DNA from: Reclinomonas americana ATCC 50394
Taxonomy: Eukaryota
Length of the DNA stretch: 38,695 nt
Reading direction: 5' to 3'
Assembly (NCBI GenBank): GCA_048213135.1
Contig: PS015545.1
Span: 41,465-80,159 of the forward strand
In this document: piece by piece, positions 6,001 to 38,571 of the stretch
Numbering within the stretch: position 1 is the stretch's first letter
Layout: each line of letters starts with the position of its first letter
The notes under the pieces: generated by a model
Told to the model about the DNA's origin: nothing
The model's input: only the letters and a program-made list of their open reading frames with translations
The model's database searches: none
Translations under genes and position numbers: made by a program

Positions 6001-9000
6001 TGGTATTGGGTGACTGTGACATCACCAATCTCATTCTTTGTATTATGTACAGCTTGGTCCGGCTGGTCCGTCTGGTCCTGCTGGCGAGAAGGGAGACAAG
6101 GGAGACAAGGGCGATGTGAGTTGCTGATCAGCCAAACTGTTGTGCACCTCCCAACCTTTGATCCTGACATGAGCGTGCTTTCGTTAGAATGGCGCCCCTG
6201 GCGAGAAGGGAGAGGTGAGCTCGCAAACTCCTGTGCGTTGTGCTAGGTTGCTACAGCTTGCTCATCATTTGCCGTTTGTAGCTTGGTCCGGCTGGCCCAT
6301 CTGGCCCTGCTGGCGAGAAGGGAGAGAAGGGAGATGTGAGTCCTCCTGTGCAGCAGCGTGCTTAGAATGACTACAAAACCATCCATCTCATTCTTCTTCT
6401 GCAAACAGCTTGGCCCGGCTGGCCCATCTGGCCCTGCTGGCGAGAAGGGCGAGAAGGGAGACAAGGGCGACGTGAGTTTGCTGAGCAATCTAATGTTGTG
6501 CATGTGCAGCATTCAGACGTTTTGATCCTGACATGCGCGTGATTGCGTAGAATGGCGCTCCTGGCGAGAAGGGAGAGAAGGGAGATGTAAGTCATCATGA
6601 TGTGAGGGGGCGACTGCAGAACTATCAGTCTTATTCTTCTGTTAACAGCTCGGCCCGGCTGGTCCATCGGGCCCTGCGGGCGAGAAGGGCGAGAAGGGAG
6701 ATGTGCGTTTCATTTTTTACGCTGTGCTCAGCAGCAGTGGCGACAGTTGTTTTCTCACATTCTTCCGTTCACAGCTTGGTCCGGCTGGCCCGTCTGGCCC
6801 ATCTGGCCCTGCTGGCGAGAAGGGCGAGAAGGGAGACAAGGGCGATGTGAGTTCGCTGAACAGTCAAATGTCATGCACGCCCGAACGTTTTGATCCTGAC
6901 ATGCGCGCGTGTTTGCACAGAATGGAACTCCTGGCGAGAAGGGAGAGAAGGGCGATGTGCGTTCCCATTCACAACCTGTTGCTAGGGTGACCAATCTCAC
7001 TCTTCTATGATTTACAGCTTGGTCCTGCCGGCCCGTCTGGCCCTGCGGGCGAGAAGGGCGAGAAGGGAGATGTGCGTTGTTGTTCACACATTCAGGTGAA
7101 CTACAACATCGTTCTCATGTATATTTGATTGCAGCTTGGCCCCTCTGGTCCCGCCGGCCCTGCTGGCGAAAAGGGCGAGAAGGGAGATGTGCGTTACTAA
7201 ACTGCAGTGTGGGACTCTGAATAGACGGCAACATCTGTTCTCATGCGTGTGCGTTTGCAGCTTGGTCCTGCTGGCCCGGCTGGCGAGAAGGGCGAGAAGG
7301 GCGACGTGCGTGGTGCTTTCGTATTGTGCTGCGCAGCGACGATTGTTCTAATGTTTATTCGATATGCAGCTTGGTCCTGCTGGTCCAGGTGGCCCAGCTG
7401 GCGAAAAGGGCGAGAAGGGTGACAAGGGCGATAAGGGCGATGTGCGTTTTCCCTCACATGATTGGTTACGATGATAATTTTGTCTCATGTTAGTGTTTTA
7501 TCGCAGCTTGGTCCTGCCGGCCCTGCTGGCGAGAAAGGAGAGAAGGGAGATGTGCGTCACTTTGTGCAGTGCATTGCTTCGTCGTGATAGTGTATTTGTT
7601 CTCATCGACTTTCTGCATGCAGCTTGGTCCATCTGGCCCTGCTGGCGAGAAGGGAGAAAAGGGAGATGTGCGTTGATCTTGCGGCGGGCTTCTGCACGAT
7701 GACTGCAACAACGGTTCTCACGTTGCTTCTTTATAGCTTGGTCCCGCTGGCCCTGCTGGTCCTATCGGCGAGAAGGGCGAGAAGGGAGATGTGCGTTATT
7801 CACGAACGTGCGGTTGTTTGTTGCCTCGTTGGTAATAGTTCTCACGTGCATTCTCTTTGCAGCTTGGCCCCGCTGGTCCTGGTGGCCCTGCTGGTCCTTC
7901 TGGCGAAAAGGGCGAGAAGGGTGACAAGGGAGACGTGCGTTTATCTTCGTGCATCACAGCGATGATGATAGCGATTGTTCTCATCTTGTGTGCTTGTCCA
8001 CAGCTTGGTCCTGCTGGCCCTGCTGGCGAGAAGGGAGAGAAGGGAGACGTGCGTCACTCTGCAGCGCACTAGTTTACATTGATCTTGGCAATTGTTCTAA
8101 CGTGTATTCTGTGTGCAGCTTGGCCCCGCTGGCCCTGGTGGTCCAGCTGGCGAAAAGGGCGAGAAGGGTGACAAGGGCGACAAGGGCGATGTGAGTTTAT
8201 GTTATGTCCTTACCTTGAGTGACAGTGGTGTCACCAACATTGTCTTGCTGTTTGATTACAGAACGGCGCTCCTGGCGAGAAGGGCGAGAAGGGAGATGTG
8301 CGTTTGTTCATGAACATGTGGTTCTTTTTTGTAGCTTTGCTGGCAACATTTCTTACTTGCATGAGATCGCAGCTTGGCCCCGCTGGTCCTGGCGGCCCGG
8401 CTGGTGAAAAGGGCGAGAAGGGCGACAAGGGTGACAAGGGAGATGTACGTTATTCTTCGCGTCACAGCGAGGATGATACCAGTTGTTCTCATTTTGTTTG
8501 CTTGTCCACAGCTTGGTCCGTCCGGTCCTGCTGGCGAGAAGGGAGAAAAGGGAGATGTGAGTCAATCTTTGCAGTGCAGTACTTTGCAGCGATAGTGGTA
8601 TTTGTTCTCACGTGTATTGTGTTTGCAGCTTGGTCCCGTTGGTCCTGGTGGCCCTGCTGGTGAAAAGGGCGAGAAGGGAGACAAGGGCGACAAGGGCGAT
8701 GTGAGTTTATGTTCTCGCTCTCAGCTTGAGAGTGGCAGTGGTGTCACAAACATTGTCTTCATGCTTGCGTACAGAACGGCGCTCCGGGCGAGAAGGGCGA
8801 GGTTTGTAGTGTTTTCTGGTTTGCTTGTGCTATCTCTTTGTGATCGCTGAAAACCGGGTCCCGCACAGATTGGTCCTGGCGGACCTGCTGGCCCAGCTGG
8901 TCCTTCCGGTCCCGCTGGCGAGAAGGGAGAGAAGGGAGACGTGCGTGCGACTCTTTGTAGTGCAGTACTTTACAGTGACTGTGTGGCGTTTGTTCTCATG

Positions 9001-11450
9001 TGTATTCCGTTTGCAGCTTGGTCCCGCTGGCCCTGGTGGCCCTGCTGGTGAAAAGGGCGAGAAGGGTGACAAGGGTGACAAGGGCGACAAGGGCGATGTG
9101 AGTTTATGTTCTGGTACTTCACTTGAGAGTGACAGCGGAGTCACCAACATTGTCTTCCTGTTTGCGTTCAGAACGGCGCTCCTGGCGAGAAGGGCGAGAA
9201 GGGAGATGTGCGTAGTTCATGAACTTGTGTTTGTTGGTGGCTTCGTTGGCAATAGGCTTCTCACGTGCATTGACTCTCAGCTTGGCCCCGCTGGTCCTGG
9301 TGGCCCTGCTGGCCCTGCTGGCGAGAAGGGAGAGGTGAGTTTATCCTTTGCAGTACCTCTCTTTACGAAAACGCATGCTGAAGCTGCCTCGTCCACAGCT
9401 TGGTCCGGCTGGACCTGCTGGACCCATTGGCCCCGCTGGTACTCCTGGAGAGAAAGGCGAGAAGGGCGACAAGGGTGACAAGGGCGATGTAAGTGCTGCC
9501 AACAAATGCAGTTTTAACTGAACGGGGTATCGTGATTCTGACGGATGCATGCGCGAGCGCAGAATGGTACGCCGGGCGAGAAGGGCACTCCAGGCGACAA
9601 GGGCGACAAGGGAGATGTGCGTCGCCGTGTATAGTCGTCGTTGTTTCGATGTTGGGTAGATGCTGAACCACGCACTATTTAATCGCAGATTGGCCCGGGC
9701 GGCCCTGCCGGAGAGAAGGGCGAGAAGGGCGAGAAGGGTGACAAGGGAGATGTGAGTGTGCTTGACCCGGTACCGTTGCCGAATTCGTCTCTGTAACCTT
9801 AATGCTTTTGCTGTCACAGCTTGGTCCGGCTGGCCCTAACGGCCCCGCTGGCGACAAGGGCGAGAAGGGAGAGAAGGGCGACAAGGGAGATGTACGTCGT
9901 CCAAAACTGCGGATGACTGAATGGAGTATTGACTTGCTGTTGTTTTTCACAGAATGGCGCCCCTGGTGAGAAGGGCGAGAAGGGCGACAAGGGAGAAAAG
10001 GGCGACAGGGGAGACAAGGGAGACAACGGCATGCAGGTATGACGCTTGCACATGAAGTAGTTGTTTCCGTCGTGTAACATTTCTGGCGTCCCCATCGCAG
10101 CCGTTCGGCCTGCGTTGCATTACCGCGTCAATCTCGTTGAAGGAGCCGCGCAATGCGTCCACCATTGTCCAGTGCCCTGCTGGTACGCCGTGGTCTCACG
10201 CGCCATTAATTCGTTTCTCGTTCCTCGCCCTCATTGCGCTGCGATTCGGGTTGCAGGAACTGTGGTGACCGGTGGTGGTATCATCAATCACCTGCGCGAG
10301 TTTAGCGAGCGGTGCGTCGTACTGTTGTGTGTGTGTCCAAGTCTGCTGCATACTCATGTCAATCTACGTGCAGCTCTGTTCTGCGTGAGAGCAAGCCAGT
10401 GGAGAACGGCTGGCAGTGCCGAGTGTGCGTCTTCTCGTCTTTGCTGCCCTTTTTCAGCAGTGTCTCACTCCACCGCATGCTTCTGTAGTGGCCTGTCTGG
10501 CGGAAAGTGGTCATGCTTCGCGCGTTGCTGCAAACTGCCGAAGGACACTGTTGTGGTGACCGTCACTGGCGACAATGACGCGTACGGCAAGTCGACCGCG
10601 AGTTGCCCGGCTGACTATCAGGTCCGATCGCACCCTCCTCGTATCGTGCCATGCAAGGCGCAGTACTCATCCTCCTGTTCACGGTGAACGCAGGTTCTTG
10701 GTGGTGGTATTGCCATCGGCGGAGAGACTTGCCACGAGAAGGACCCTCTCGAGCGCTACGTCTACAGCGAGTCGCGACCGAACGACAACGCCACGAGCTG
10801 GCAGTGCCAGGCTGGCCTCCAGGGTGAGTTTTCTGCCACGCCTCTATACCTCTCAAAATATTGACGCTCGACTCTCTTCTTTGCCCCGTCGCAGGCTCGT
10901 CAATCGCTCCGTCGACGTGCTTTGCTCGCTGCGCCAAGTTCCCCACTTCGCGCAAGATTGAAATTGTAAGCCGTTGCTTGTCGCTGCGACACCCGTGAAT
11001 AATGACGCTCATCGTGCTTTGTGTGCCAGGTTACCATCTCGTCGCCGACAGCCGATGCGATTCGCGTCTCGTGCCCGTCCACTTCGACTTTGGTTGGCGG
11101 TGGCTCGCTGTACGATGCCGGAAGCGGCGGATCCTGCAACGGTACGTGTTTCTACACCGTTCAACAACGCCTTCTTTTCGTCTCGTACTTATCCCACCAC
11201 CCCTTCAGGAACCAATGTGTTTGAGGAGTCTTATCCCGACACCAATTCCTCGTGGCGCTGCGACATGTTGCGTCGACGTCCATCGCTCGTTCTTTGTTTG
11301 CGAGAGCACGCGATACTCACAAATGTGGCTTTCTTTCGCAGGGCGCTGGATTCTGGCCGTCCACTGGCGTGCTACGCTTCTTGCGTCCACCCGCCGGGCG
11401 CTCAACTGATCCCCGACGTTCTCTCACTGGTCAACGAGACGAGTGAGTGA
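1..11450 (+). CDS. Giant collagen-like protein, 5'-partial and multi-exon: about 395 visible Gly-X-Y triplets plus a triplicated Cys-containing C-terminal head
   Basis: Spliced GT-AG micro-exons give continuous Gly-X-Y. First block: <1-31, 98-133, 209-244, 324-359, 430-465, 540-575, [gaps], 2104-2139, 2214-2285, 2350-2385 ... 4835-4897, 4982-5026 (PGPAGPKGTDGK, PGRDGKDGKDGK types). Second block: 5092-5163, 5235-5297, 5361-5432, 5505-5531 ... 9820-9891, 9953-10036 (LGPAGPSGPAGEKGEKGD, NGAPGEKGD types). Non-collagenous exons 10101-10182, 10257-10311, 10374-10424, 10489-10621, 10694-10823, 10895-10965, 11030-11141, 11209-11266 and 11342-11450 join in frame to a TGA (...LVNETSE*). One exon (4375-4418) is 1 nt short. 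Confidence 0.93.
644..1196. other. Assembly gap (N run) inside the collagen repeat array
   Basis: Continuous Ns from 644 to 1196. Confidence 1.
1197..1383 (-). other. Inverted fragment with two collagen micro-exons, probably a mis-oriented contig
   Basis: On the minus strand, exons 1380-1345 (PGPAGPKGTDGK) and 1277-1242 (PGPAGPKGADGK) have tag|...|gtctga borders. The introns resemble those at 32-97 and 134-175. Gaps flank it on both sides. Confidence 0.85.
1384..2032. other. Assembly gap (N run) inside the collagen repeat array
   Basis: Continuous Ns from 1384 to 2032. Confidence 1.
2104..10036 (+). repeat. Tandem exon-intron cassette array (about 90-165 nt units) with 2-exon and 4-exon higher-order periodicity
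   Basis: Intron families recur. 'gtgagttcaacgtggta(t/c)tgggtgactgtgacatcaccaatctcattct' starts at 5532, 5758 and 5989. 'gtgagtttatgtt...gagtg(a/g)cag...tcac(c/a)aacattgtctt' follows 8190, 8700 and 9097. Confidence 0.9.
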
Positions 11451-12403: not shown

Positions 12404-14657
12404 TTACTCGAGGAGCACGCGCGGCATCAGTGTGTTCTGTATGCGAGTGGCCAGCGCGTGGTAGACGGCGGCATGTTCCGGACGCGGCGTGCACACCAGC
12501 TCGAGCCACTGGTGACCGAGCAAGGTGCTTGCGTGCTCGTTGCCGCGAATAACAGCAGCAGCGGCGCGAACACAGCCGCCGAGAGCGGTCAGGTTGTCAC
12601 TCACGGCGGCCTCGGAGGAGCGGTACACGGGCGAGTTGAAAGCGTCGGCAAGGATTTGGAGGAAGACGGTGGATTTGGACGCGCCGCCCGTGCACACCAG
12701 CCGGCCATCTTGCGGGCGGAGAGATAGATGGAGAGGCGGAGAGTGTGAATGCGCCGGCAGCACATAGCATAGTGGGGAAGGTAGCGTACCGGATTCGAGC
12801 AGCGGAAACCGAAATTGACGCGCTGCAATCAGCAGGGCGAGGGCACGGAACTCGAGCACGGCTCTCGCCTCTGTGTCGCAGGGGAATTCTTCGGCAATGG
12901 GTTCGTCAGAGTCGGCCACGAAGCGAAAAATCCCTGCACAGGCAACACGTGAGCGACAAGCGACGGGGCACGGCATGCGGCGGAAATTCTCCCCCGGCAA
13001 ACCATGAGCCCCGCTTGGGCACACTTCACGATCGACCCAGTACAATCCCACGCACCCGCCATTGCCCGGCGGTCTGCGGCTGACCAGCTCCTCAAAATGC
13101 GTCCACGACGGACTGCCGACACTCCTTCGGACGGACTCCCGGGCCAGAGAGCCATTCTTGAAGCAGATGAGCGGCAACCGTCGCGCAACGGGATGGCCGT
13201 ACAGTGGTGACGCTGCGCAGGAGCAGTGGCAGCAGACGATTGGCTAATGTGGGGCAAGGGAGGGAGGGGGAGAAGAAGGACAGGAGGGTAGGCTCACCGA
13301 GAAAGAGATGACCCAGTTGTGCGCACGCTTCGAGGTTGTCGGCAACGCAGGAGATGGTGTCGCTCGTGCCGAGACTCACCGTCAAATCGCCTTTTTGTTG
13401 ACAGGAGACGACAGCAGCACTGCACAGAGAGAGAGAGAGAGAAAGGAAGGTTGTCGGCACACATAGGGAAAGACTATCACTATCTCTTTCTCACCTTCCA
13501 TTATCGCCGGTGAACACAAAGACGGGAGTGTCGGGTCGAAATCCGAAGCGCTTGACGAAATACGCAGCGACGGAACCGACCGGTGCCGAGTCACCGTCGG
13601 TGGCCACGCGTGGCAGCCGACTCTGCAGCACGTCGTCGTCGGGGCCGGCACACACAACTCGCGCAATATCACGGTCCCACTCGAGCGCTGCAAGTGAGCT
13701 GAGCCGGAGGAGGCCATCGGGGGAGGAGACGCGCGAGTGGCAACGCACTGTGCAGGTTGAACAGATTCGTGCCGGAGGCCTCGTTGACGTCCAGCGGAGC
13801 CCACTCGCCCACGAGGACAGAACACAAGAGGGAGCTAATCAAGCACAGCCGTTCCACATGCGCCGCGAAACCAGCAGCGCCGCCCACTCGCCTCCAGAAT
13901 TTGCAGATCTGCGCCGCTGCAAAGCTGCGCCACGGTAGATGGTCAACAAGCTTGTCGCGTTTCAACGCGCAGAGTCACCGCCGCACCGCTGCACCGCGCG
14001 AGAGCCAGTGACAGCCGCAAGTCCCTCCGCACCGCCCTCCACTTGCTCCTCCAGCAGCCGACACTCCTCGTCGGTGGACGTGTCCATCCACACAGTCGCC
14101 TCGTGCGGAAAACAGTGCGACAGTGCCTCCAGCAGTGACTCTTCCGCGTCGCCACGCAGCGATGCCAGTGCCTGCTCAAACCCCGGTGCACACCACACAA
14201 CTCCATGCTGCTGCGCAGCGCCACTGACGCCCACAACCTGCAAAGCCACATGAGCATGAGCATGAGGAAAGAGACTGAGAGGCATCGGAGATGACAGTGC
14301 ACCTCACTCAGATCGACACCACTCTGCTTTACAGTCTCCAACAGTGCATCCAACGCGCACAGCCACAGTTGCGGTGGACAAGTCACCTCCTTCCCGTCAC
14401 TGCGATCGATCATGAGACACAAGACACGACACGCACACCTCCTTCTTGCGCATGCGCGTGTGGCATCACCTGTGAATGTGCACTCCAGAGTCGTCGACCA
14501 GCGAGGCCCACTCGCAGTGTGCATACTGCGACTTGATGTGGTCCAAACGCACGGAGAAAACGCGCACAGTTTCGGTGTTGGTGCCAGGCAGTGGCAGCAG
14601 CACTGCCTTGAGCGACTGCGTGCTGAGGTCCAACCCCAGTGTCCACTGTCCCGGCAT
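12404..14657 (-). CDS. XYLB: Xylulose kinase (FGGY family), multi-exon
   Basis: The N-terminus is MPGQWTLGLDLSTQSLKA. Internal motifs include VSGAAQQHGVVW, WMDTST, ASGTNL, FTGDN, VSLGTSDT, LICFKNGSLARE and CTGGAS...LQILADAFNSPVY, plus TALGG. These are characteristic of eukaryotic XYLB/XKS1. The stop is at 12404. Confidence 0.93.
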
Positions 14658-15124: not shown

Positions 15125-15819
15125 TCACTGTGGGCCGCCAGGCGAGCCACTGCCAGGGGGCCTGCCCGAAGCGGGTTCGTGCTGTTGGCCATGGCGGGCG
15201 CCACTGTGCGCAGCTCCCTGCGGTGGTCTCCAGTCGGGGTGTTGGAAGAGCGCCTGCTCGACGGTTTCGCGATCCAGCATGACTCCACCTGCATGCAGAT
15301 GCACATCGCGCACTGAGTACACAACGCCGCAGCAACCAACAGCACCTCGGCCGCCACGGACGAGAAGGAAGGCACACCACACATTCATGTACACCTCCAA
15401 ACTGTCGCATACGTATACGATGACGCTCTGCAATGATCTCTCTCCTCACCAGCACTCGCCACTGCGCGCTCCAGCTGCGCCTGCACCTCCAGCACGGCGT
15501 TGACTGTTTCCATGCCGAGGATGTCCACCACAGATAAAGGATGGCCGCTCACGTCCGAGTCGGCCGCGGCCGCCGCCGCAGTCTCATCTCGAACTCGACT
15601 GGCGTCACCGCCCTCCAACGCCACCTGCGCGTGCGGGGGGCGTCACGAACGTCGGTCATCTCCCTCCCCGACACACCCTCCACACTCTGCCCCGACCCCA
15701 CAAGAGAGGAAAGAATCTTGGCACGCGAGGAGAGCAGCGCTCATATTTGATTGCTGCGCTAAAACCCCACTCACCTCTGGTCGAGGGCGTTGGGGCGGTG
15801 GTTGAATGTTTTCGCTCAT
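15125..15819 (-). CDS. Hypothetical protein, about 127 aa, 3 exons
   Basis: Exons 15819-15775, 15624-15450 and 15288-15125 have gtgag donors and gcag acceptors. They join in frame: MSENIQPPPQRPRPE|VALEGG...VLEVQAQLERAVASAG|GVMLDRETVEQALFQHPDW...GGPQ*. I recognise no family. Confidence 0.5.
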
Positions 15820-16511
15820 AACACGCAGTCGACAAGAGAGGTCTGCCGTTTGGCTGCGTGTTCGCGCTTCGCTCGAGAGAGATTGGAAAAGGGGTGAGAC
15901 AATTGCTTCCGAGTTTGGGTTGCGCTGCCCTTTCACACTTGCGCGCATGCAATAAACGTGGCCCTCGCTTTTGGTGCGACGAATGTACGCTGCGGTCGTG
16001 TGCACAGAAGATACTGCCACGTCGTCGCACAAGCGAGGACGTGAGACAGGGCAAAGCCGTGCGACATGGCGGTCATGCCGGTCATTTGCAATCAACAACG
16101 AGGCAGTGCGCAAAATGCACTCTCGAACGCATGCGCCGATGTCGATGTCCACAACTGCGCGGCGAGTGGTGCCGATGACCCTGCTGCCACTGTGTGTTAC
16201 GCTCTCCCACCAGTGATGGTCATCGCGCGCGGGGCGGTAAGCGGAGCGTGAGAGAAGTAGGAAGCTCCGACGAATCGCAGACTCCATATGCATCAGATTT
16301 TGTTCGAATTCGGAAAATTGGTCTGCTGCCTTGCTCTCACACCGTGGACGTGCAGCGACCTCTCGGTTGTGAGTGCAAGTGGTGGCGCACAGTGGTCTAG
16401 TGTCTCACTTTGAACTTTGTGCGCTGGGCAGTGCGTTTCACCATTTGTGTCATATGCGACAATTTGTGTTCAGTTCGAAGGTTTGCAGACATCCTCTTTC
16501 TCCACAACGCA

Positions 16512-16538
16512 AACAACAACAACAACAACAACAACAAC
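16512..16538. repeat. (AAC)9 microsatellite
   Basis: Read directly from the sequence. Confidence 0.95.
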
Positions 16539-17107
16539 TTTACTAATCCAAGCAGCAACATGTGCACAGCTGTATGATGATCACCATCTTGAGTGAGCAC
16601 CAGAAACACAGACATCACGGAAAAAGGCGAGAAAAAGAACGCCTTCATGATCAAGTCTCCTGTCAACGATGAGTTCTACATTGCGCGACGACACAATCTT
16701 CACTGCTCTGCTATTCGATCGTGGTCTGGTACTGGTTATTCATGTACAGAAACTCTAAGATCTGGTATGTCCTTTTGCAGGCAGTGCGTCTCTGTTCTAC
16801 GCCTCTCACGCAGTGATCCATCTCATGTGTGCCAAGGCACGTTGCAAGAAGCTCAGCTGTACGTGCGTGCGTGCGTGTGTGCGTGTGTGTGTGTCTCGGA
16901 CAAGCTGAGACAGGTATGGTATCGATACACGGCGACCGATAATCTCGATCACTGCGAGAATGGTGACACAACGCGCGACGATTGGGACTTTACTGCATCG
17001 TGCGCGACTCGCATAGCACGCAGTAGGCTGTACATGCGTGATGACACCGCGAAGAACAAGAAGAAGACTGGACTCAGATGGAAGAAAGATAGAGAGAGAG
17101 AAAGAAA

Positions 17108-19746
17108 CTAAAACATGTAAGGTGACACCGTGGTGGTGGCCACATGCACAGTCGAGTGCGACGGCAGGTGCGACGGTGGTGGAACGGACGGTGGTGGTGG
17201 TGGTGGTGGCGGCGGCGCCGTTGTCGACGAAGTACCTGTGTGTACAGTTGTCGCCGCTGCTGCTTGCGCTGCGCATGCTGTCGCATATGCAGGAGTGTGG
17301 TCGACGTGCACCGTTGTTGCCATAACAAACAGCGACAGGGACGGTTCGTACGGGTAGAGGATGCGACTGCCGGCGCAGGTCAGAGCCACAGGCTCCGACA
17401 GATCTCGAACATGCCACGACTCCGACTCTGCGTAACACACACACACACAGTGAGTCCTGCGAGGCGAGGCACGCCAGCACACATGCACGAATGAGCGCGC
17501 AACTCGTAATGCACTGTGTCACACTGCCACGCAGCAGCACTTGCGCACAAAAAGCCACCGTGTCTTGACACGGCAGCGACAGATCAAACAGCCTGCACAC
17601 GCACACGGCCATGAGGAGAGCGGCAGCGCTTCGCCAAGCACACTCATCGTGGAACGCAACGAGGGACAACCGGCACACTTGCCGTGCTGCGCCAAGAGTG
17701 CGTACGCCATCGGACTGCAATACAGCACTGCGCGCGCGCGGCAATCAGCACAGGGTCTCCTCCTGACACAAACACACGCACGCACACTTGCACTCACCTC
17801 GTCCTTCTGTGTTCAGCAAAAACACCATGCCAGGGTGGTGCTGGAATGTGTTCTGCACCAGCGAGCTGACGGCAGGCGCGAACATCTCGCGACTGCACAA
17901 CACTTGCGGTGGCAGACTGAGCAGGTGCGTCATCGGGAGCACGTGATCGCTGAGGTCGGGCCCACACCCGGCCGCTTGCCGTGCCCCCTCACAGCCAGAC
18001 TCTGCGCGCGTGCGTGTCATGATGAGTGCCAGCCACCGCCACCGCCACACCACCAAGTCAAGTTTTCGGACAAACCGAGTTGTTCTTCGAGTGCACCCAT
18101 GCCACCGCCCGCATTGTGTGGTGGCGGGAAGGTGTAGACAGGCGGCCATGCAGATGACGACGAGACAGGCGCGGGATGAACTGCCATCGGTGGCCACTAC
18201 ATGGCAACCAGTTGGCGGGTCAACAATGGCAAAAAACAGAAGACAAACACAACAAAGAGCGCGCGAGGACCGCGCCAGTGCACACACGACTAGTGAACAG
18301 GCAAGGGCAGTGCAACGCAGGAGAGGCAAAGGTGGGAGGGAGGGGCAGTCGTGCCGTTGAGTGATTGTGTCTCCTTCGCAACACATGCCAAAAGAAGAAA
18401 GAATATTCTCGCAGTCAGTCGCTCACCGAAACAAGCTCCGGCGACTGCTGTTGCTGCTGCTGCCACACGGTCGACGATGGTAGAACCGTGTTCTCCATCG
18501 GAAGCTGAACTCGCAGATTTGGGCGTTTGCGCGGTGGCGGACATACCGAGAGCGAAAGATTTTCGTCTTTCGCCTCCTCCTCCGCTTCATCCTCATCCTC
18601 CTCCTCCTCCTCCTCATCATCCTCATCGTCCACACTTCGCTTTCTCCGCCCACCTGTACGCCTCGTGTCTCGCGCACGTTTGCGACTCAATCGATTTCCA
18701 CCGGCCTTTGAGTGGTGCACTGCAGTGAGAGATATGGTTGGTTTTCCGAGATTGTCGACAAAAGAGGCAACTCGGCAAACCTTGCTCCTCCTCATGCCCT
18801 GCCCGCGCAGAAGCAAGGGTGTCGCAATCGTGGTCCGCCTCCATCTGCTGCTTGCGCGCTTGCAGTGCAGGACGACCCGTGACCAAAGGAGTATCCAGTG
18901 CCAACTTTGTCGGCGGCTGCATTCCGTGAGCCCTCATCTTGCGGCGTTCCTTGGCACGGCGGTTTTGGTACCAGATGTCAACGACTTTCCTGTGCACGAG
19001 CACGCAACGCACCAGCGAATGGTCAGCAGCATTCTCCGCAAGGCCATGAGAAGTACAGGATATATCGCCGGAAGGTGAAAAGACAGCACAGCGAGGGATA
19101 TGCAAAAAGAACGGCCACGATCGATTCTTCTCTCTTTTCTTAACTTCCCCTTGCTCTCTGTCTCCGCCGCACTGCACCTCAACTCTCACAACGACCGACA
19201 CAATTACAATATCTCGACAATGAGATCGCACCAGCACCCGCGGGGAGTACACAACAAACAGCAATAAAAAAACAACACAAAACAGAGAAATATATCCAGA
19301 CACGCATAGCATACGAGAGTGGCGACGCAACAGTGGCAGACCCAGCTGGCCAGCGACCGCGCTCTTGTCCTTGCGCGACGGGTACCGGTTGCTCACAAAC
19401 ACCGCCTCCAGAACCACTTTCTGTGCACACACACAGTGTCAAACACACAGGGAAAAGTCTGTCTCTCTCTCTCTTCTCTGCCACCAACCTCGGCCACTGT
19501 CAGTCGCCGTGGCACTGATGTGCGTTCAGGCCCGTCTTCGTCCTCCATCTCCTCCTCCTCCTCGTCTTCGTCCTCCTCCTCGTCGTCGTCTGCGTGTTGC
19601 TCACGGCGACCACCATGACGATGACCGATCGGGATGTGGTGTTGCTGCTGCTGTTCGAGTTCTGCTAGTGGGACAGTGGGTTCGTGATGCTGATCGGCAT
19701 GATCGTCGAGGAGGTACGTGAATGCTGATGGCGCCACGCGATACAT
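17108..19746 (-). CDS. Homeodomain transcription factor (non-TALE, Q50) with a C-terminal PAS-like domain, about 526 aa, 9 exons
   Basis: Exons 19746-19489, 19420-19332, 18989-18781, 18653-18427, 18196-18076, 18001-17798, 17727-17679, 17592-17489 and 17427-17108 are all phase-compatible (1581 nt). Homeodomain: RRLTVAE|KVVLEAVFVSNRYPSRKDKSAVAGQLGLPL|KVVDIWYQNRRAKERR. PAS-like segment: FQHHPGMVFLLNTEGR|VLYCSPMAYALL. The homeodomain call is secure. The PAS call is by pattern only. Confidence 0.8.
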
Positions 19747-20387
19747 TTGTCGTCGATGCAGACAAGTAACGCGCGCTCCACACAGGCGAAAGAAAAAGAA
19801 AGTGCGTGAAAAGCGACTGCAAATTGCGGCGATGACCATAAAGAGTAGTGAGCGCCTTTCAGTAATGTGCGAGGAGAGCGAAGCAAAGAAGGAGACAGAG
19901 AGCGAGAGAGACAGAGAAGCGTGTCCGTCTCCGCGTTCTCGGAGAGTACGCGCGTCTACCAGCACGTGTGTCAGTGGGGGACGGACGCCGACGCATTGTA
20001 CTGAAACTCTTGCGATGGTAAAATATATGTGCGTCGTCGTGTTCAGACAGACAGACGCACAACGCAAAAAAAGTGTGCACATTGCCACGCACCGCAGATG
20101 ACGACCGTGGTGGATTCCAGATTCCCTCTGCGCCAGCTGTGAACTTTATTGCACCTTCGACTGGCATCTGCCTAACACAGCAAGTGTGCGTGGGTGGCGA
20201 ACGCATCTCGTGGGCAGACACACGGGTAGATGCCACGACTATTCGCCCCGATAGCTCGTCACACCTACCGTCGGCATGCAACGCTGTGGAGGAGGGCGCT
20301 TAAGAAATTTGCGCATATGCTCAAACGACGAAAAAGGATAAAAACTGTGGCAGTTTGCGGGTAACTCACCTGTTGACCAGTCGGCGA

Positions 20388-23300
20388 TCACAACAGGAGT
20401 TTGTCGTCGCCGAGTAGCACCTCTGCCGCGGAGTGTGGATGCAGAGAGCAGAGATACGGCAGGCCAACAGGTCCGAGTCCAATAAGAAACTCCTGCACGC
20501 GATGTACGGTAAGTACATTGAGTGGTATTGCAGCAGTGTCCCACGCACACGCGTGACGCGGGAAGAGTGTGTGAGCAGATGTGACGAGTGACGCAACTCG
20601 ATAGGCACTCAGATAATCGTGCTTGGTCCACATCAGCGCCCGCAAGTGCGCACTCCACGCCGAGTGCAGCAGTGGCAAGCGATTGAGGAGAGTGAGACGC
20701 ACAGAGCCACACAGCGGATTGACACAGGCGCAAGCCAGCACCGCAAAGGCGGCGGAGAAGCGCGGCTGCATCCGTCCAGCCACCATCCGTGAGACCGGGA
20801 TTTGTGGAGGGAGGAATATTCTTTTTGCACGACAACGATTGATGTCAATCACGCAACGACATCGACGACTGTGGCCGTCACGTGCTGCACCATTCTCTGC
20901 AGCTGTGTGACTTGTCGGCCCCCCGCAGCTGCCACCGGTCCCACTGCACTGCCGCGCTCCACGCCGGCCACCCCGTCGACCGCCGGAAGTCGGCTATCGA
21001 GGTCCTCCAGCGACGACAACAACTTGCCGCCAACGTCGGCAAAGCTGCAACAGAATACGCGCGAAATCAGTCAATAGTCAGAAGAAAAAACGACAACAAC
21101 AACAACAGGGCAACTCTGAGAGTGCTACACTGACAGCGTCAGCCACTGACACGGAGGGCGCGACTGAAGATGCCGACGCGGCCACCGGCGCCGTCTAAGC
21201 ACACCGATACAGAAATCAATAATAATATATCGGTCCAACACAAATGCTGCCACACCCGCACCATCAAGGCGGCCACATCCTGCAGTGCTGTGCGCACCAG
21301 GAGGCGTGTGGCCAGCCGAAACATCTTCTTCGCCAGAGCTGCGAATATATTGATGGGTTTTTTTCTTGGCGCGCAGCCCACCAATCATCCAACGGCTGCC
21401 TTTCGCCGCTAACACACTCACCTCGTCCGTCTGCTGCACGGCTGGCGACCATGCAGTACACTTCGTAGGCCACAGTGCGCACCGCGGAGCTCAAATCACT
21501 TCGCTGATGGCGGGAGAAGTTGCGGTGAGTGTACCAAAGTGAATACCACAGTGGAACGGGTGTGCGCGTTCTTCTCAACTGTGGACTCGTCGACAGCCCG
21601 GCAAAAGGCCACCAACATCAGCGCAAAATCATTCAGGACAGACGGCAGTGGCACAGCTTGCATTCTGCTCGCAAGCGCAGCGCAGCACGTCAGGGAAAAA
21701 CAGGACCCACTCCTAGCAAAAGCAAACAAACGCAACAAATGGCCACACAGTCGCAACGCTGCTTCCACCTGCTGATTGCAGTGCGGCTGTGAGCTGCGCA
21801 GTCGCCATGCCACCACCGTCCGCAACAAGCTGCATCGCAATCTCGCCGTCTCTGGCGATCCTCGCGGCCGCTGCACTTCCGGTGTGAGAGACGCCGCCAG
21901 CCAGGCAATGGCGCTCGATTGTCGCTGCGTCGCCGAGAACGACGAGCCAGCAGCCGCGCCAATCACCGTTGACATGTGCCGCGACGATGCCTCCGCACTG
22001 CACACCGAAGAGAGAGATAAGAATGTGCGGCACACGGAATGTGCGAGAGCCGCACCTGTCGAGGACTCGCAGCACCACTCTGGCCAGCGTGCGACCAACA
22101 TATGGGTCCGTCGCAAACGAGAGTTGTGCGAGGCAGGCCAGCAGACTTGGCAGGTGTTGGCGAGCGAGCGACCTGTCGGGGTAGGGGTGAGGCACTCCCG
22201 CAAGACAACTGCAGCGCACGGCTGGAATCAACGCCACTCACTCGTCGGCATTCGGCGACAGGAAAAAGTGATCGAGCAGCCACGGCAGGAGACTGGTCGA
22301 AGAGGCCGGGCGGTATATCAACGGTGCGCACTGCTTGATCACACAGGCCACAACGTGCCACACAAACTGCTTGTGCTCCGCCGAAGACACCAGCAGAGTC
22401 TGCAAGTTGAAAAAGTACTTTTCCATGGCCGACTGCACAGAGACGGCCTCGTGAGGGGGCATTCCAGCCACCGTCTCGCGATACAAGCAGCCCATGTTGC
22501 GAAAGGTGTCTGCGGGCGGTCGAGTCAGGCACTGCTGCGCACCAGGCCACACACCTCTTGGATGCTACAAAAACCTTGCACCAGACGCAATCGCTCTGCG
22601 GCAAACTCGGCCTCCGTGCGATATCGCGACACAAACACTTCTGCGCCTGCCGCCGTACGTCGCGCGGTGACGACTCGTGGAAGGAGCCGCCGGAAGCCAG
22701 CACAGTTGGCACTGACCAAGGCAGTCGTCAAGCGCAGCTGCAACGCCGTGCTTCCTTCGCAGTCCAGCATCGCCTGCAGCCACATATTGATGTAGCTGCT
22801 TTCGTATTCCTGCACGCAAAATATAAATGAATCAGTGCAGACGGAGGAGGGCACAGACACGTCGACGAGAGAGCCACCTGCGCCAGCGATGGGAAGGCTG
22901 CCAGCATGGCGCACGCGTATCGCACCGGAAGCGAGCGCTGACGTGCGGAGGTGTTGGCGCGAGTCAGCCAGCGGCTGGCGTTGCCGTATTGCGCCAGCAA
23001 ATCATCCACTTTCTGCACACCACAGTAAGATCACTGTTTCTCGTTTGAGGCGTGCCATTGTCACAACGCACTTTGCGGTGCAGTCGCACGAGGAAGCAGT
23101 CCAGCTCGGCCATGCAGGCGACCAGCGCCTCGAATTGTGCCGCATCGCCCTCGACACTCCTGCACAGGTACGCACAGAACTGAGTCCCACAACAAGCAAG
23201 AAAACAATGACAAGTACGCACGCAGCGCTGGCCATCAGCGACGAGAGGTGGGGCTGCACCTGCAACGCCAGCACATCACAAACATCTGTGGCGAGTGGAT

Positions 23301-26300
23301 CCACTGGTGCTCGTGGCGGAGGAGGTGGAGGCGGTGCGCCACCGCGGGTGGCGGCCAGCTGCGCCAGACGCTGCAGCACGGCCGGATCGTCGTCAAAATC
23401 GTCAAAATCGTCAAACTCGGCGACCGCAGTTGCGGGCGACGGCTGTTTCGGCAGGAGCGCGGACAGACAAAAGGCACCAGCACGACAGGGACCAGACGAT
23501 GAGCTGCGCGGGATTGCGTTACAGGAAAAAGAAGCAACAATGAGCAGCAAAGCGTCACATACCTTGGAGCTGCACTGCGTGCGGCCAGCGGCAGCACTCT
23601 GTTGAGGGCAACACGAACAATCTCCAGACACTACAGCACTGCTGTGAGAAGGCAGACAGATGACACGGCTAACCAGTAAGCGTGCGTGATGCACCTGCGA
23701 GCGGAACTCGGATGAGGCAGCATGCGATGGATGCAACAGCTGGAGTACTGTGCGCGAGAGATACACGTGTCGCACCACGGCCCAGGTCACCTGAAGCACG
23801 CATTGAGCATTGCAGGCCAACAATTGAAGCGCATGGTATATCGACGCAACTTTTTCACGCGCCAGTGCATCGACATCACGAGGCGCGCGCTGTTCGAGTC
23901 GTGCCAACACAGAGCGACACGACACGATGCACGCAAGTATCGACAGACACAACCGACGCTCATCGTCCTTGCGAAAGGCGTCGGCTGGCGACGGTGGTGG
24001 TGGCGGCGGCGGCGGTGTGGGCGCAGCACCACTGCCGCCGCTTTTGCCACCGAGAATCTGTCGCATCGATACCGTCGACGTGGACGACGACGTGGTGGGT
24101 CGACTTGGTTGCTGCGTTGCAGCACTGCCTCCGGGAGGAGCAGATGGAACGGAACAGTGCAGTGGTGCGAGGAGCTCGGCAGCCGACTGCACCACAGATT
24201 CAGACGACGCTCTCTTTCTACGCCAGCATGAAAAGCATCGTGTAACTTGTACTTTCTCGGGCTCCCCACGAAATATTGCCACCGCCAGCAAGCAACGAAT
24301 GGCGTCGACCACTGTGTCACGCAGTTGCGAATCGAGCTGACCAGGCACGTACAGAGCTGCACCACAGTGTGAGATGCGTGGAGGTAGGCGCGGACGACAC
24401 ACACGAAGAACATGCCTTCCCATCGCTTCACCATGGTGCGCCACTGGCTGTCGGCAGCCGCCGAGGCCACCGACAGCAGCAGCGCCAAGCATGCGCGCAA
24501 ATGACCTCCGTGTGCCTGCATGCTGCTGTCAGTGACAGAAGCAAGCGACAGCACCATCGCGACTCGTGCGCGGGAGACGTACTCTACGCTGTGCGCCAAA
24601 CGGTGCCGACGGCAGCAGCTGGAACAACTGGGAAATCAGTCGATTGCCGAGTGTCGTAGCACGGCGACGACTCTCTTCATCTCTGTGGCGCACGAGTCAG
24701 CTGGCTGAAAACAAATCTCTGGAGACACCAGCATCTTCTTGTCACTCACCCACTAGCCGCTTGCGCATTGACCAGGCGCACGTTTGCATGCACAAGCTTG
24801 AGAAGAATGCATTCGAGCGAGTCAACGGGCTCCCGACAGCACGGCACAGTTCCATCGTAGTGATCCTGCCAGCGAGTGCTTATTAATCAGAAAAGAAGGG
24901 AGCAGCGACGCGAGAAACAAAATACACGAAACCAGGAACGGAGGAAACTTGCGCCCGGCAACACTCAGCGATGCATCAGCGGACACCATCGTCAGATGTT
25001 GCTTCCACAGTGCAGGCACCAGCGACGGCGGACAAGGACCCCAGAACCCAACCAGATCCAGCACGCGTGCAAGGAGGGTTTTGAGGAAATCGGCACGCAG
25101 ACTTACACGACTGCGGTTACCGGGCGTAGAAAGAAATGAGCCTAGTGCTCTCTCACACACACACGCACGAGGGAGACCACATTGCAAGTCAACAACAACA
25201 CACCGCAGAATATCGACGGAACCGAGGCGGGAGCAGCCGTGGTTGGAGTCAAAGGACGACAACTGTGGCGTGCATCTGTCGCTGGGCAAGAGTGCGACGT
25301 CCGGCGACGCGAGCAGCATCTCCACCAGTGGCCAGTTGGCGGCATCCGTCGTCGTGTGGCCCTCGTTGTCACACTTTATCGACTCGAGGATCTCCGCAAA
25401 CGTGAACAGTGCACACCAGCAGAATTCAAGAACGTCTGCACACGCGACATTACTCTCAGAAGGAGAGAGCACAAATGACATCAACGAGGCCATTATACCT
25501 TCGCGGAACGCCACACGGAGAGTCGAGGGCTTGAAAAGCGGCGCATTGGCGGGTAGAAGCGGATCTGAGACGGCCACCGGCTGATCGATCACCACTCGCG
25601 GCAAGCCGGGGATGTGTCGGAGAGTGGCACACACGGCATTGAGGACGCTCCACAGCGAATGCAGGCGACTGCCGTCGGCCTCGACAAAGTGCTGCGAGTG
25701 CCAAGTGAGCGAAAAAGAAAGCATCTACATTCTCTCACCGCCGCCACTCACCGGCAGCGCGAACGCCATGTGCGCCACCAAGTATGCACATGGTGCTTGT
25801 GCGAGCAGCGTCAGTGACGACACTCCTTCCGGCACCTTCATCTGCGCCGGAGCTGTGCACGCATCGTCAAGGAGCGGACGGAGGGATGATGGCGCGCACA
25901 CACAATCGCAGGGGGGGAAAAGAAGGATATCTGGTGATGACCACCATCAGCTGGCGCACGAGCTGCCGCGCATACGTCGGCGCATCTATCCACAGCATGC
26001 GTCGCAGTACCGGATGTCCGTGCAGCAGACGCAACCACTCGAGGCCGTGACAGTGCACCACGACGGCCAGCTGGCGAGCGGCATGCGACGCCTGCTCCGC
26101 CAACTCGCCGACAGAGACCAGCAGTGCGCGCCAACCTCGCTCCAGCCACTGCAACAGACGACAGGCGCGATCCAAGGCCGTCACCTGACTGTCATCATCA
26201 CCACTGCCGGCACACATGTCGACCACACGACACAGCCACGCTGTCACTTGTCGACACGTCGACTCGACCGCGTGCACCGTGTCGCCATCGGGCGCGGCGT

Positions 26301-28713: not shown

Positions 28714-31164
28714 ATGAAGCGTAGCGCAACCGAGAGCATTGAGGACGGCGACGGCAGCGGTGGCGACAGCGGTGGCGGTGGCGAGAGCCCACCACAAAAG
28801 CGCAGCAAGAACGGCGGTGATGACGCTGGAGTGGCGGCGGCCTCTGCTGCTGCTGCTGCGGCTGCTGCGGCTGCTGCAAGTGGTGCAACGGGCGATGCAA
28901 CTGCGGCCGGTGGCAGTGCAAGTGCGGCGGCACCGGCGGCGGCCAAGCCTGCGGCGACATCGCAGGCATGTTTGGACTTGCACTCTGTCTCTCGCGCACT
29001 CTCAGTCCATGCGAGACCTGTTCGGCGTTTGTGTGTGTGCATAGAGAGAATTGTGTCTTTTTGTGTGTGCATCAAAGTGTGTGTGTGTGTTGTGCGCGTG
29101 TGATGGCGCGCGCGAGAGTGTTTGCCTTGTGTCGTCTGCGGACATGGCGCGCACACTCACTCAATTGCACTCTCTCTCTCTCTCTCTCCCACTCTCTGCA
29201 TGTTTGAGAGATAGAGTGATACTGCATGATTGCACTTGTCTCACACACGCTGTTTTGTTGTTTGTTGTTGACTGCGCGCAGACGTTCACTGCCAAGGACT
29301 ACTCGTCGTCGGCTGACATGCTGCTGAAGAACGGAAGGTGAGAGTGTCTGTGACATGCATTGTCGACTTTTTGGTCATATGTGACTGACTGATGGTGATG
29401 TGTTATTTGCATTTAGGGTCGATGATGCACTCAAGTATGCCGAGGTGGCTGTGCGAATGGACAAGGATATGGCTGACGTTGCGTGTTCTGTGTGTGTGAG
29501 AGAGAGAGAGAAAGAGAGACGACGTGCCTCTTGTTTCTCTGCATCCGTGTTTTGAGAGTGCGCCTTACAATGCGTGCGTGTAGGGCTGGCGCGCTCGCGG
29601 TGACGTGCTGATGAAGCTCGGGCAGCTGAGCGAGGCCGAAAAGTCGTACAGGGTCGGCTTGGCTCTCGAGCCTGGCAAGTTTCGTGGCATATTGACTCTT
29701 CCGTATGTTGGTTCGCTCGTTGCTCACTTGCCTGTCGTGCAGTGCGCACATGCAGGCGCAACTGCAGCAGATTGCTGCGGCTGAGCAAATCCGCGCTCCG
29801 ACGGCGGCTCCTTGTTGCGTTGTGTCGCTTTGTTTTTCCCCCGCCTCTTTTGTGGTCGTTCTCACTCCATGTCTCTTGATATGCGCAGACACGGTGGAGG
29901 ATGGCAAGTGCAGCTACGATGCTGGCTACGTGGAGCAGAATGTGTATGTGTGCCTGACCTGCAACGAGTTGTACGGACACGTGAGTTTTTCTGAATCCGC
30001 CTCGGTCCCTTGGTGTTTTGTGGGCTCACTGGTTGTGCACAGACGGCGGGAATCTGTGAAGAGTGCTCGACACAGTGCCACGAGGATGCCGGTCACGAGG
30101 TGGAGAATATCGGCATGCGCCGCAATTTCCGCTGCGACTGCGGCAACAGCAAATTCAAGAAGGGCAGCAAGCGGTGCGAATGCCAGCTCTACCCTTCGGA
30201 AAAGGATCACGCAAATCCGCTCAACGAATACGGTGTGCACCCTCACTCCCTTTCATTATTCGTTTTTGCCTCTCGCTGACCCTGTCGCCCCTCTCGATAG
30301 GCCCGTCATTCTCTGGTCGCTACTGCTTCTGCAATCGCGAAGACTCTGGCGACGAGGGCTACGTGCAGTGCACGCGCTGCCAAGAGTGGTTCCACTACGC
30401 TTGCTTGGGAATCGCTGGCGTGGTGCGTGTGTGTTTTTCCGATTTGCTTTTCTTCTCAGTGATCCTAACTCTGCGTGCCGGAACACAGGAACACTCGACG
30501 ATTGAATCCTCCGCCAATGCCTACCCGTTCCTGTGCCTCAACTGCATGAATACGTTTGCACCGTTTTTGCAACCGTACCCGCATCAGCGGTTCACCGAGG
30601 CCATCCAGCGCAACACGCTCACAATGAATGGTGAGGCGTGTGCCCGCTTCGCTCTCTCGCGCCACTATTAATTGATTTCCTCCCTTGGCGCGCAGGCGAC
30701 ATTGTGCACTGGACGACGCAACACGGCAGCTTTGTGCACCCGCTGCTGACCGATCGACTCGGCCCAAGGGAGCGCGACGAATTGCTGCGCACGATGCCGT
30801 TCTGGGAGACCCTGGAGGAGGTGCAGAATGCGCGCAAGCGTTTGCTGGTGGTGCGCGATCTAGGTGGCCAAGTGGACGCCCAAGTCGAGCATGTCAAGCA
30901 AATGAGGCAGGAGATGGCGCAGGTCACTGACGGTGACCGTCTGTCGTTCTTGTCGGTGGAGCTGCAAAAGAAGATGCAAGAGGCGGTGAACACGCATGCC
31001 AGGTTGCTCGCGGTGCAAGCCGGTCGCCGTCAAGTGTCGGAGCAGGTGCGTGTATCTTGTTTTTCCTCCCACGCTCCCCCTTTGTGAGTCGCTGACACAT
31101 GGTGGTGATGCAGGACGTGCAAAAGGCCGCCGAGGAAATCCACAAGCGGGCAGAACGCAAGTGA
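28714..31164 (+). CDS. UBR7: UBR7-like E3 ligase (UBR box + PHD) with N-terminal TPR repeats
   Basis: TPR-like exons 29282-29678 read ADMLLKNGRVDDALKYAEVAVRMDKDMADGWRARGDVLMKLGQLSEAEKSYRVGLALEPGN. The UBR box reads CSYDAGYVEQNVYVCLTC...GICEECSTQCH...HEVENIGMRRNFRCDCGNSKF. The PHD reads GRYCFCNR...VQCTRCQEWFHYACL...FLCLNCM. The TGA ends at 31164. Confidence 0.87.
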
Positions 31165-31519: not shown

Positions 31520-33396
31520 ATGGTTCTCTTTTGCTGCATCTCACGCATCCTCGCGCGCTCTGTACGCTCACTCACTCTCTTTCTCTCTCTGTGTGTCTGT
31601 GTGTGTGTGCGTGACATGCCCGAGCACAGTCGGACCCCGCTTCCTCTTCCTCCTCTTCCTCCTCAACTCCGGCCCCGCACCGCGAGCTGACCTACCGCTC
31701 GTACTTGAGCATCGACACGCTGCTGTCGATGCAGAACGGAGGCAGCAATGGGCATCTGCATTTCCACGAAGAGCATCTGTTCATGGTCGTGCACCAAGTT
31801 GCGAATCTCACTCTCTTCTCAGTGTGTCTTGTGTGTCTCTCACAGGGGGTATGAAATAGGCATTTGAGCTGTGGTTCAAGCAAGTGATTTTCGATTTGCG
31901 ACCTGTGCTGGATGCGGTGCATGAGGCGGTGTCGGCCTCGCCGCCGACTCTGATCAGCACCTCGCAGGCGAATGACTGTGCGGCCAAGCTGGAGCGCGTG
32001 AATATGGTCCTGCGCTTCACGATGGGGTCAGTAGGGGAGAAGGAGGGACAGAAAAAGGGTGGAAGACAAGTATCACTCCTTCCCTTGTCTTTCGCTCTCT
32101 CTCTCGCACACACACGCTGGAGTCAGTAGGAGGAGGGAGACAGCGGAGAGTGACAAGGGAGGGGAGGAGGCAGGGAGCCAAATATCCTTCTTTCTTCCGG
32201 AATTCCCTTCCTTCTTGACACAAGCAGGAGGGCGAGAGGAGTGTATCCTTCCATCTTTCGCTTCCCCTGATCTGATCTGACTTGCGCGGCAGACAATTCG
32301 ACCTGCTGGAGACCATGCATCCGTGCGAGTTCCACGAGTTCCGCGACTTTATCGGGCCGGCGTCGGGCTTCCAGAGCGAGCAGATGCGTGTCATTGAGAT
32401 CATGATGGGCCTCAGCGACTCGGAGCGCTTCATGTCGGGCACGTCGCCGTATTTGGAGAGCTTTGAGCCGGATCAGCGGGAGCGGCTGTTGACCTTGCAC
32501 CGCGGGCCCAACCTGCGCCGTGTGATGCAGCAGTTGTTGTCGCAGGTGCCGGTGCCGGCGCGCTTCCGACCGGCGTTTTTGGATGCCAAGCGGCGCAGTT
32601 TGATCGAGCAAAAGGTGTACTGGTTTGGCATCGAGCGCCGTCCAGAGATCGAAAAGGCCGCCAACCTCGGTTCGTTCACATACTTGCGCGCGCGCTCTTG
32701 TCGTACGTTCTCATCTTGCCTCCAGAAATCCGCAAGACTGAGATGATGATGGAGGGCAAGGATCTCGAGTTGGACACGGTGGATCGGTACGCAGACGTGC
32801 CGCGCGTGTGCAGATGGAACGAGGGTCTGCCAGCTGCTGCCGATGCCGGCAAGGATCGCGTCGACAAGCGCGCCGACCAGCACGAGCCGGCACCGGCTCC
32901 AGTCGCCGGCAATGGGTCACCAACGCTCACATCGGCCGCCGCCACTCTGGGCGCAGAACCTCTGGAGTGCCCTCATCACCGCCTGTCGCCGGCCGAGGTT
33001 CCGGCAGACGAGCGCGCGCAGCGGCTGCGAGCGCGTATGGGTGCTCTCTTTGTGCAGTCGTACCGGCACGAGTCGCAATGGGCGCCGTTCGCCAAAATGA
33101 TCGACATGTGTCTGGCCATTGAGGAGGCGACGCTGGTATGGCGCAACCGGCACGTTCGCATGGTGGAGCGGTTCATTGGCCGGCGTGTTGGCACGGGTTT
33201 GTTGTTGTTGTTGTCGTCGGAAAAATACACAGTACACAAGAGTGACATGGCTCACGGTCACGTGCATGCAGGAGGCTCGTCGGGAGTCGACTACCTCGAC
33301 GCCACGACCACGTATCGCGTCTTCCAGGACTTGTGGGCGGTGTGCACCATGCTGATGAAGAACTCGGCGTTGCCGCCGCTGAGCGAGCTTCAGTGA
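31520..33396 (+). CDS. TDO2: Tryptophan 2,3-dioxygenase (eukaryotic type)
   Basis: Spliced motifs: TYRSYLSIDTLLSMQ, HEEHLFMVVHQ|AFELWFKQVIFDL, LLETMHPCEFHEFRDFIGPASGFQSEQMRVIE, GALFVQSYR, WRNRHVRMVERFIG, GTG|GSSGVDYL and YRVFQDLW. The likely start is an ATG-only exon (31520-31522) spliced to 31630. Confidence 0.94.
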
Positions 33397-38367: not shown

Positions 38368-38445
38368 TGAGAGAGGAGAGAGGGAGAGGGAGAGGAGAGA
38401 GAGAGAGAGGGAGAGGGAGAGGGAGAGGGAGAGGGAGGAGCGAAG

Positions 38446-38492
<47 letters not shown>

Positions 38493-38571
38493 GAGAGCGA
38501 GAGGGGCACACGCACACACACGCACGCATCGTGGCTGTGATAAATGTCAGTGACTGCATCCTGCATCTCAA

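Follow-up and report, generated by a model that had tools for sequence, protein, structure and literature searches.

The homeobox gene on the minus strand of the window, by which we mean the whole 38.7 kb stretch of DNA analysed here, raises the question of whether a homeodomain and a PAS-type module are encoded in one polypeptide. A sequence-only reading of the region had proposed that they are, in the form of a homeobox-PAS one-component transcription factor. The present analysis points to a lineage-specific Q50 homeodomain factor gene, whose transcript may continue into an orphan and very divergent PAS-like (or PAS-sized alpha/beta) tail; this is the reading that we prefer, with somewhat less than even confidence.

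Gene model and genomic context

The DNA of the window is eukaryotic, with a GC content of ~58%, one gap of 1202 Ns, and short introns of the GT..AG type. Splicing was re-done on the sequence, giving a homeobox gene on the minus strand (19746-17108) with nine exons and a product of 548 aa (Table 1). The spliced segments add up to 1647 nt, which correspond to 548 codons plus the stop, and contain no internal stops. The nine-exon, phase-consistent structure of the sequence-only reading was thus reproduced exactly, with GT..AG borders throughout, and every peptide string quoted from it, including those of the C-terminal region, was found in the spliced translation. The eight introns are 61-342 nt long and all of them start with GT, while the acceptors are CAG in seven cases and TAG in one. 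Phase consistency by itself lends weak support to this model, since 132 other GT..AG pairs for intron 6 also leave the frame open. The window contains 194 six-frame ORFs of at least 100 aa, and a search of the opposite strand and the remaining frames across the gene brought up no noteworthy Pfam family.

The acidic tracts and basic clusters that had been described around the homeodomain, two of each, were located in the translation. In hydropathy, residues ~340-485 stand out as an ordered island with Pro/Ala/Ser-rich linkers on both sides. The C-terminal region had also been called Cys-rich, and residues 324-480 were measured at 5.7% Cys. The DNA of this region is TG-rich. A Cys content of this size together with TG-rich DNA could also have its source in non-coding or misframed sequence.

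Table 1. Features of the homeobox gene model, in order of transcription. Positions are those of the window, and residues are numbered along the spliced translation.
Feature	Position	Strand	Remarks
Exon 1	19489..19746	-	86 codons; start codon 19746-19744
Acidic tract 1 (exon 1)	19590-19534	-	residues 53-71
Homeodomain start (exon 1)	from 19524	-	first 12 residues of the homeodomain; spacing correct into the Pfam-matched exon 2
Exon 2	19332..19420	-	homeodomain helix 1-2 part; PF00046 match
Exon 3	18781..18989	-	recognition helix with W48, Y49, Q50, N51 and R53; PF00046 match
Homeodomain end (exon 3)	18935	-	followed by a proline-containing linker without heptad zipper
Exon 4	18427..18719	-	basic and acidic tracts; Pfam gave low-complexity noise alone
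Basic cluster (exon 4)	18684-18637	-	residues 198-213; NLS-like, by inspection only
Acidic tract 2 (exon 4)	18630-18562	-	residues 216-238
Second basic motif (exon 4)	18534-18520	-	residues 248-252; NLS-like, by inspection only
Intron 4	18197..18426	-	230 nt; GTGAG-type donor, long T-rich tract, TAG acceptor
Exon 5	18076..18196	-	Pro/Ala/Ser-rich linker, 22% Pro
Exon 6	17798..18001	-	ordered island begins here, with strand 1 of the PAS-like motif
Putative PAS-like domain	17294..17852	-	residues 374-487; exons 6 to 9, split by introns 6, 7 and 8
Significant local PAS-profile match	17843-17690	-	residues 377-404
Exon 7	17679..17727	-	strand 2 and helix 1 of the PAS-like motif; 15 aa
Exon 8	17489..17592	-	putative helical middle of the PAS-like domain
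Exon 9	17108..17427	-	first ~50 codons (to 17294) form the putative beta-strand half
Exon 9 tail	stop 17110-17108	-	Ala/Thr/Pro-rich

A typical Q50 homeodomain split across three exons

The gene encodes a typical (non-TALE) Q50 homeodomain, which is split across exons 1 to 3. Exons 2 and 3 were scanned separately against Pfam, and each matched PF00046, and not the TALE model, at a score slightly below the cut-off of 22.9 bits (22.0 bits, E 1.4e-4 and profile positions 14-40 for exon 2; 21.6 bits, E 1.9e-4 and profile positions 42-57 for exon 3). The two matches adjoin in the profile and lie on consecutive exons, and splicing places them in the 60-residue spacing of a homeodomain, at residues 75-134. 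The core residues L16, F20, W48, N51 and R53 are present, the three-residue TALE loop is absent, and position 50 is Gln, in agreement with the assignment made by the sequence-only reading. In its PF00046 match, its 60-residue spacing and these residues, Q50 included, the domain resembles other typical Q50 homeodomains. It differs from them in the Tyr at position 49, where Phe is usual, and also in that no class-defining flanking domain was recognised and no close relative was found.

The claim that the protein has neither a leucine zipper nor a START domain also held. A zipper of the HD-ZIP type is excluded by four prolines, at residues 141, 142, 150 and 156, which fall within 22 residues C-terminal of the homeodomain, and START was absent from the Pfam matches on all the exon pieces scanned. 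A word-index protein search, limited to longer proteins, found no relatives of exon 3, and a PDB sequence search with exon 2 gave no homeodomain match. The homeobox gene in itself is an ordinary, lineage-specific one.

Coding potential and splicing of the C-terminal exons

A plus-strand collagen-like gene in the window, with 55 mini-exons and a Gly-X-Y phase that is kept through 55 GT..AG introns, served as the internal standard for splicing. The intron sizes of the homeobox gene resemble those of this gene and those of the homology-supported introns of the tryptophan dioxygenase (TDO) gene, a further internal standard from the window. A splice matrix was trained on the 55 collagen-like introns, and the sites of the homeobox gene were ranked against 165 AG and 229 GT in the region. 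All eight acceptors were found between the 88th and 98th percentiles. From intron 4 to intron 8, the donors fall between the 69th and 95th percentiles and score no worse than those of introns 1 and 2 (60th and 22nd), two introns that are validated by the homeodomain itself. The exon 6 donor stands at the 95th percentile, the donor of intron 8 is atypical (69th), and intron 4 combines a donor at the 81st percentile with an acceptor at the 91st.

For codon-position composition, the training set was 1335 nt from exons with Pfam matches. The frame of the gene model was the best of the three in exons 6, 7 and 8 and in the opening 150 nt of exon 9, with a lead over the other frames of at least 28 bits in exon 6. 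It was not the best in exon 5, which is the least certain of the exons in the model, and it ranked worst of the three in the final 170 nt of exon 9. The statistic is a weak one, since a positive coding score is also obtained for intron 7.

Searches for relatives with a word index, limited to longer proteins, found none for exon 6 or for residues 1-55 of exon 9. Conservation is therefore unusable as support for exons 3, 6 and 9, which are without found relatives. A full HMMER search with exon 6 against 1.84 billion representatives returned two matches, both to repeat proteins (HEAT/NACHT and PKD-like), which were rejected as spurious because they reached significance only through the sum of five stretches. 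A scan of metagenome contigs with the same exon gave two loci whose common sequence was the seeding 8-mer only, and these were also rejected. Four RNA runs with the same species label placed 0, 1, 0 and 0 reads on positions 15500-21500, a stretch that also includes neighbouring ORFs, which is too low a yield to speak for or against the exons.

Taken at the level of the gene model, splice sites and codon positions are both consistent with a coding role for exons 6 to 8 and the first part of exon 9, and a transcript shared with the homeodomain exons is plausible. We predict that these exons are probably coding and joined to those of the homeodomain.

A PAS-like signature in the spliced core

The spliced core (residues 361-488) was compared by local hhalign with PAS profiles that were home-made from bacterial and archaeal loci, which had been retrieved by the Pfam models PAS_9, PAS_4, PAS_3 and PAS, and that are less sensitive than curated libraries. 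The best match was to the PAS_9-type profile (54 sequences), with a probability of 60-67%, P values of 5e-5 to 9e-5 and scores of 27.5-27.7. Residues 377-404 align on columns 3-30 of this profile, the part that holds the first two strands and the first helix. The same register was found with the PAS_4-type profile (34 sequences; probability 47%, P 2e-4, 26 columns) and the PF00989-type profile (31 sequences; probability 46%, P 2e-4, 47 columns), so that the A-beta/B-beta/C-alpha signature is in register against three profile types (P 5e-5 to 2e-4). The PAS_3-type profile (30 sequences) gave a probability of 1.6% and a P of 0.03.

None of 369 decoys reached the PAS score of the core. These were 181 shuffles, with a maximum of 16.2, and 188 random 128-residue pieces taken from other ORFs of the window, with a maximum of 15.3. 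The reversed core sequence scored 8.3 against the PAS_9-type profile. By hmmsearch the core obtained merely 5.5 bits, yet it came first when compared with 2000 shuffles and 788 six-frame ORFs.

The signal depends on splicing. Exon 6 alone had a hhalign PAS score of 16.3 and exon 7 alone of ~9, and the two spliced together scored 28.6; adding exon 8 lengthened the alignment to 47-49 columns without raising the score. The exon 6/7 junction of the model gave the top PAS score against the 132 alternatives that preserve the ORF, the next two reaching 21.3 and 18.8, although the P value would need a factor of up to 132 if this junction had been picked for its PAS look. In the ESM Atlas, the matches of exon 6 included PAS clusters in second and twelfth place, with scores of 0.80 and 0.75 that lie below the 0.9 level and can be taken as a lead only, and a TyrR-family cluster at 0.84, also below that level.

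Extent of the PAS match

The PAS assignment of the sequence-only reading found support in the N-terminal ~30-50 residues of the domain alone, which are in register and unmatched by any decoy; the remaining two thirds gave no local signal and a weak global one. Exons 8 and 9 alone gave P values of 0.24-0.55 against the PAS profile and added nothing to the score, and the local alignment spans 28-49 of ~110 columns. The core scored 27.9 over 49 columns. Each of the 23 true PAS domains run as controls, of which 11 came from E. coli and had been withheld from the profile and 12 were PAS_3 domains, reached 41-96 over 88-115 columns. Pfam, at E values up to 10, returned no PAS family on the pieces from exons 5, 6, 8 and 9 scanned singly, which is less stringent than scanning the entire spliced domain would be and did not include the 15-residue exon 7. 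Searches of the PDB by phmmer with exons 6, 9 and 8 separately found no PAS match, and the ESM Atlas gave no usable match for exon 9.

The PAC-like strands that had been read after the signature were likewise not found locally, and are represented by a weak global fit. In a global alignment, a 117-residue stretch fitted the PAS profile with few gaps and a score of 21.3, which was reached by 11 of 319 decoys in which only the C-terminal 78 residues had been shuffled (p ~0.03). This fit hints weakly that the second half, too, is compatible with a PAS domain. If the exons are real, we put a true PAS-type fold at about one half.

Weighing the rival explanations

The in-frame stop that the sequence-only reading had placed near 18415 lies at 18417-18415 and is reached when intron 4 is retained, which leads to a homeodomain-only protein of about 286 aa. 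The downstream "exons" would then be 3' UTR or intergenic DNA threaded into frame. Such threading would be easy here, open frames being cheap, as seen in the 132 alternatives at one junction and the 194 long ORFs; exons 6 and 9 are without relatives in the searches made, exon 5 and the tail of exon 9 look non-coding in codon-position composition, and the coding-positive intron 7 makes that statistic weak. However, the donor of intron 4 is of the GTGAG type, its T-rich tract is long and its acceptor ranks at the 91st percentile, and exons 6, 7, 8 and the first part of exon 9 each favour the model frame. The downstream sequence also forms an ordered island in hydropathy, and its PAS match, which emerges only upon splicing, is reached by none of the 369 decoys and tops the 788 ORFs of the window. 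We consider a homeodomain-only product somewhat unlikely. The same stop could instead close a homeodomain gene at 18415, with a separate small gene downstream that is made of exons 5 or 6 to 9 and codes for a stand-alone PAS-like protein started at an internal ATG. Stand-alone PAS proteins are common, which speaks for this arrangement, and methionine codons are present in both exon 5 and exon 6. It appears very improbable, given that the ~230 nt between the stop and exon 5 have the anatomy of an intron and not of a promoter, and that both parts lie on one strand in compatible phases.

The nine-exon transcript could also be right and the island something other than PAS, such as another small alpha/beta domain or a Cys-rich or partly disordered region in which a beta-hairpin-helix motif arose by chance or convergence. 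The short alignment, covering merely 28-49 of ~110 columns, would agree with this, as would the silence of exons 8 and 9, the absence of Pfam and PDB matches on the pieces, a score well under that of every true PAS control, and an Atlas search in which scores stayed below 0.9 and exon 9 had no usable match. Against it, the register of the motif is correct across PAS profiles, the length of the island and the placement of its hydrophobic segments fit PAS globally (p ~0.03 against decoys shuffled in the C-terminal half), and exon 6 alone drew PAS clusters at Atlas ranks 2 and 12, as a lead only. We regard this combination of a correct transcript and a non-PAS island as unlikely. A PAS-like tail is a reasonable reading and an unproven one, the interesting part of which rests on a predicted gene model and a partial profile match.

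A model for the homeobox gene product

According to the preferred reading of a homeodomain factor with a PAS-like tail, the gene would belong to an intron-rich and poorly sampled protist. Helix 3 of its homeodomain would be expected to bind TAAT-core DNA, as established for homeodomains, and the acidic tracts and basic clusters, judged by inspection only, could serve in activation and nuclear import, respectively. The transcript most likely loses intron 4 and runs on through five further exons, which would supply a linker rich in Pro and an ordered, orphan island of ~110-140 residues (about 340-487), whose first third appears to carry the A-beta/B-beta/C-alpha signature of PAS. By analogy with the MEKHLA domain of plant HD-ZIP III proteins, the PAS-like module probably exerts control over the homeodomain protein, through its dimerisation or its activity. 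That a ligand, light or redox state feeds into the tail is purely conjectural.

A stronger version takes up the ligand- or redox-gated regulator of the sequence-only reading. The gene product would then be a direct homeodomain-PAS one-component regulator, with a Q50 homeodomain connected through disordered linkers to a Cys-rich, highly divergent PAS sensor, and with neither zipper nor START; small molecules or the redox state would act on the sensor, which would gate dimerisation or the binding of DNA. We find this version improbable.

Homeodomain proteins are normally regulated via partners, and among the well-known ones only plant HD-ZIP III proteins carry, to our knowledge, a PAS-related module of their own. 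If true, the present gene would add a second such fusion, much simpler and of independent origin, from an unrelated protist. Sensor-gated homeobox factors would then have arisen repeatedly, and the gene would offer a compact system in which to study the control of a homeodomain by a PAS module. A literature search by name, across 8.4 million papers, found no mention of a homeodomain-PAS fusion under four obvious names.

Comparison with known systems

Compared with canonical PAS domains (PAS, PAS_3, PAS_4, PAS_8 and PAS_9), the island shares the N-terminal strand-turn-strand-helix in register and a size of ~110 residues, but it has a lower score, a shorter alignment and undetected C-terminal strands, and Pfam is silent on its exon pieces.

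Among eukaryotic transcription factors, bHLH-PAS proteins, the bZIP-LOV aureochromes and the GATA-PAS White Collar proteins combine a DNA-binding domain and a PAS-type module in one chain. The product of the homeobox gene would do the same, with the difference that its DNA-binding domain is a homeodomain. The sequence-only reading had noted that the cysteine motif of LOV domains is missing, and a check of the spliced translation confirmed that this flavin-adduct motif is absent from it.

The C-terminal MEKHLA domain of HD-ZIP III proteins is related to PAS and regulates activity by way of dimerisation, as described in the passage of PMC4901127 that cites Mukherjee and Burglin (2006). No Pfam match to MEKHLA (PF08670) was obtained on the exon pieces, and the core did not match a home-made profile covering 26 MEKHLA domains, all of them cyanobacterial (P 0.38), although this profile does recover the PAS profile (93.7%). 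The homeobox gene also differs from plant HD-ZIP III genes in having no leucine zipper, START or HD-SAD. It is not a member of HD-ZIP III, and at most it may function like one. The likeness, with regard to HD-ZIP III as described in that passage, is in the layout, with a homeodomain that is N-terminal and a PAS-related module, putative in the present case, at the C-terminal end. If confirmed, the PAS-like tail would extend this theme of sensor-coupled homeodomains.

C-terminus of the homeobox gene model and RNA reads

Codon-position composition, a frame statistic trained on 1335 nt of Pfam-matched exons, favored an alternative frame far over the model frame in the final 170 nt of exon 9 (17108-17277, minus strand) of the homeobox gene. 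The true C-terminus may differ from that of the nine-exon model, through an additional intron or a different stop, or the Ala/Thr/Pro repeat in this exon may just be written in atypical codons.

The 6 kb surrounding the gene (15500-21500) collected a single read in total from four RNA-seq runs carrying the same species label as the DNA. This scarcity may indicate that the organism of the DNA is not the labelled species, or that it is missing from those libraries.

Gene content of the window

The features identified in the window are listed below. For the majority of the remaining long ORFs in the window no Pfam family was found, an example being the 508 aa ORF at 23005-24528 (minus strand).

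Features identified in the window
Feature	Position	Strand	Remarks
Collagen-like gene	2107-10036	+	Gly-X-Y mini-exons; Pfam Collagen matches slightly below cut-off
FGGY-kinase C-terminal exon	12407-13243	-	neighbor of homeobox gene
PHD-finger ORF	30060-30668	+	neighbor of homeobox gene
Tryptophan 2,3-dioxygenase	31615-33396	+	neighbor of homeobox gene; intron-split; three exons with Pfam match
VWA-domain ORF	33816-34697	+	neighbor of homeobox gene

CA/CACG-type simple repeats are frequent in introns and spacers (e.g. 16860-16900), and a (GA)n microsatellite of ~70 copies lies at 38369-38503. An assembly gap lies within positions ~1-2200 (1202 N in total), and the GC content of the 1001-2000 bin is 0.10.

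The collagen-like gene has at least 55 mini-exons, each 36-90 nt long. They are separated by short GT..AG introns across which the Gly-X-Y phase is preserved, and entire exon-intron units are tandemly duplicated with periods of 102-489 nt.
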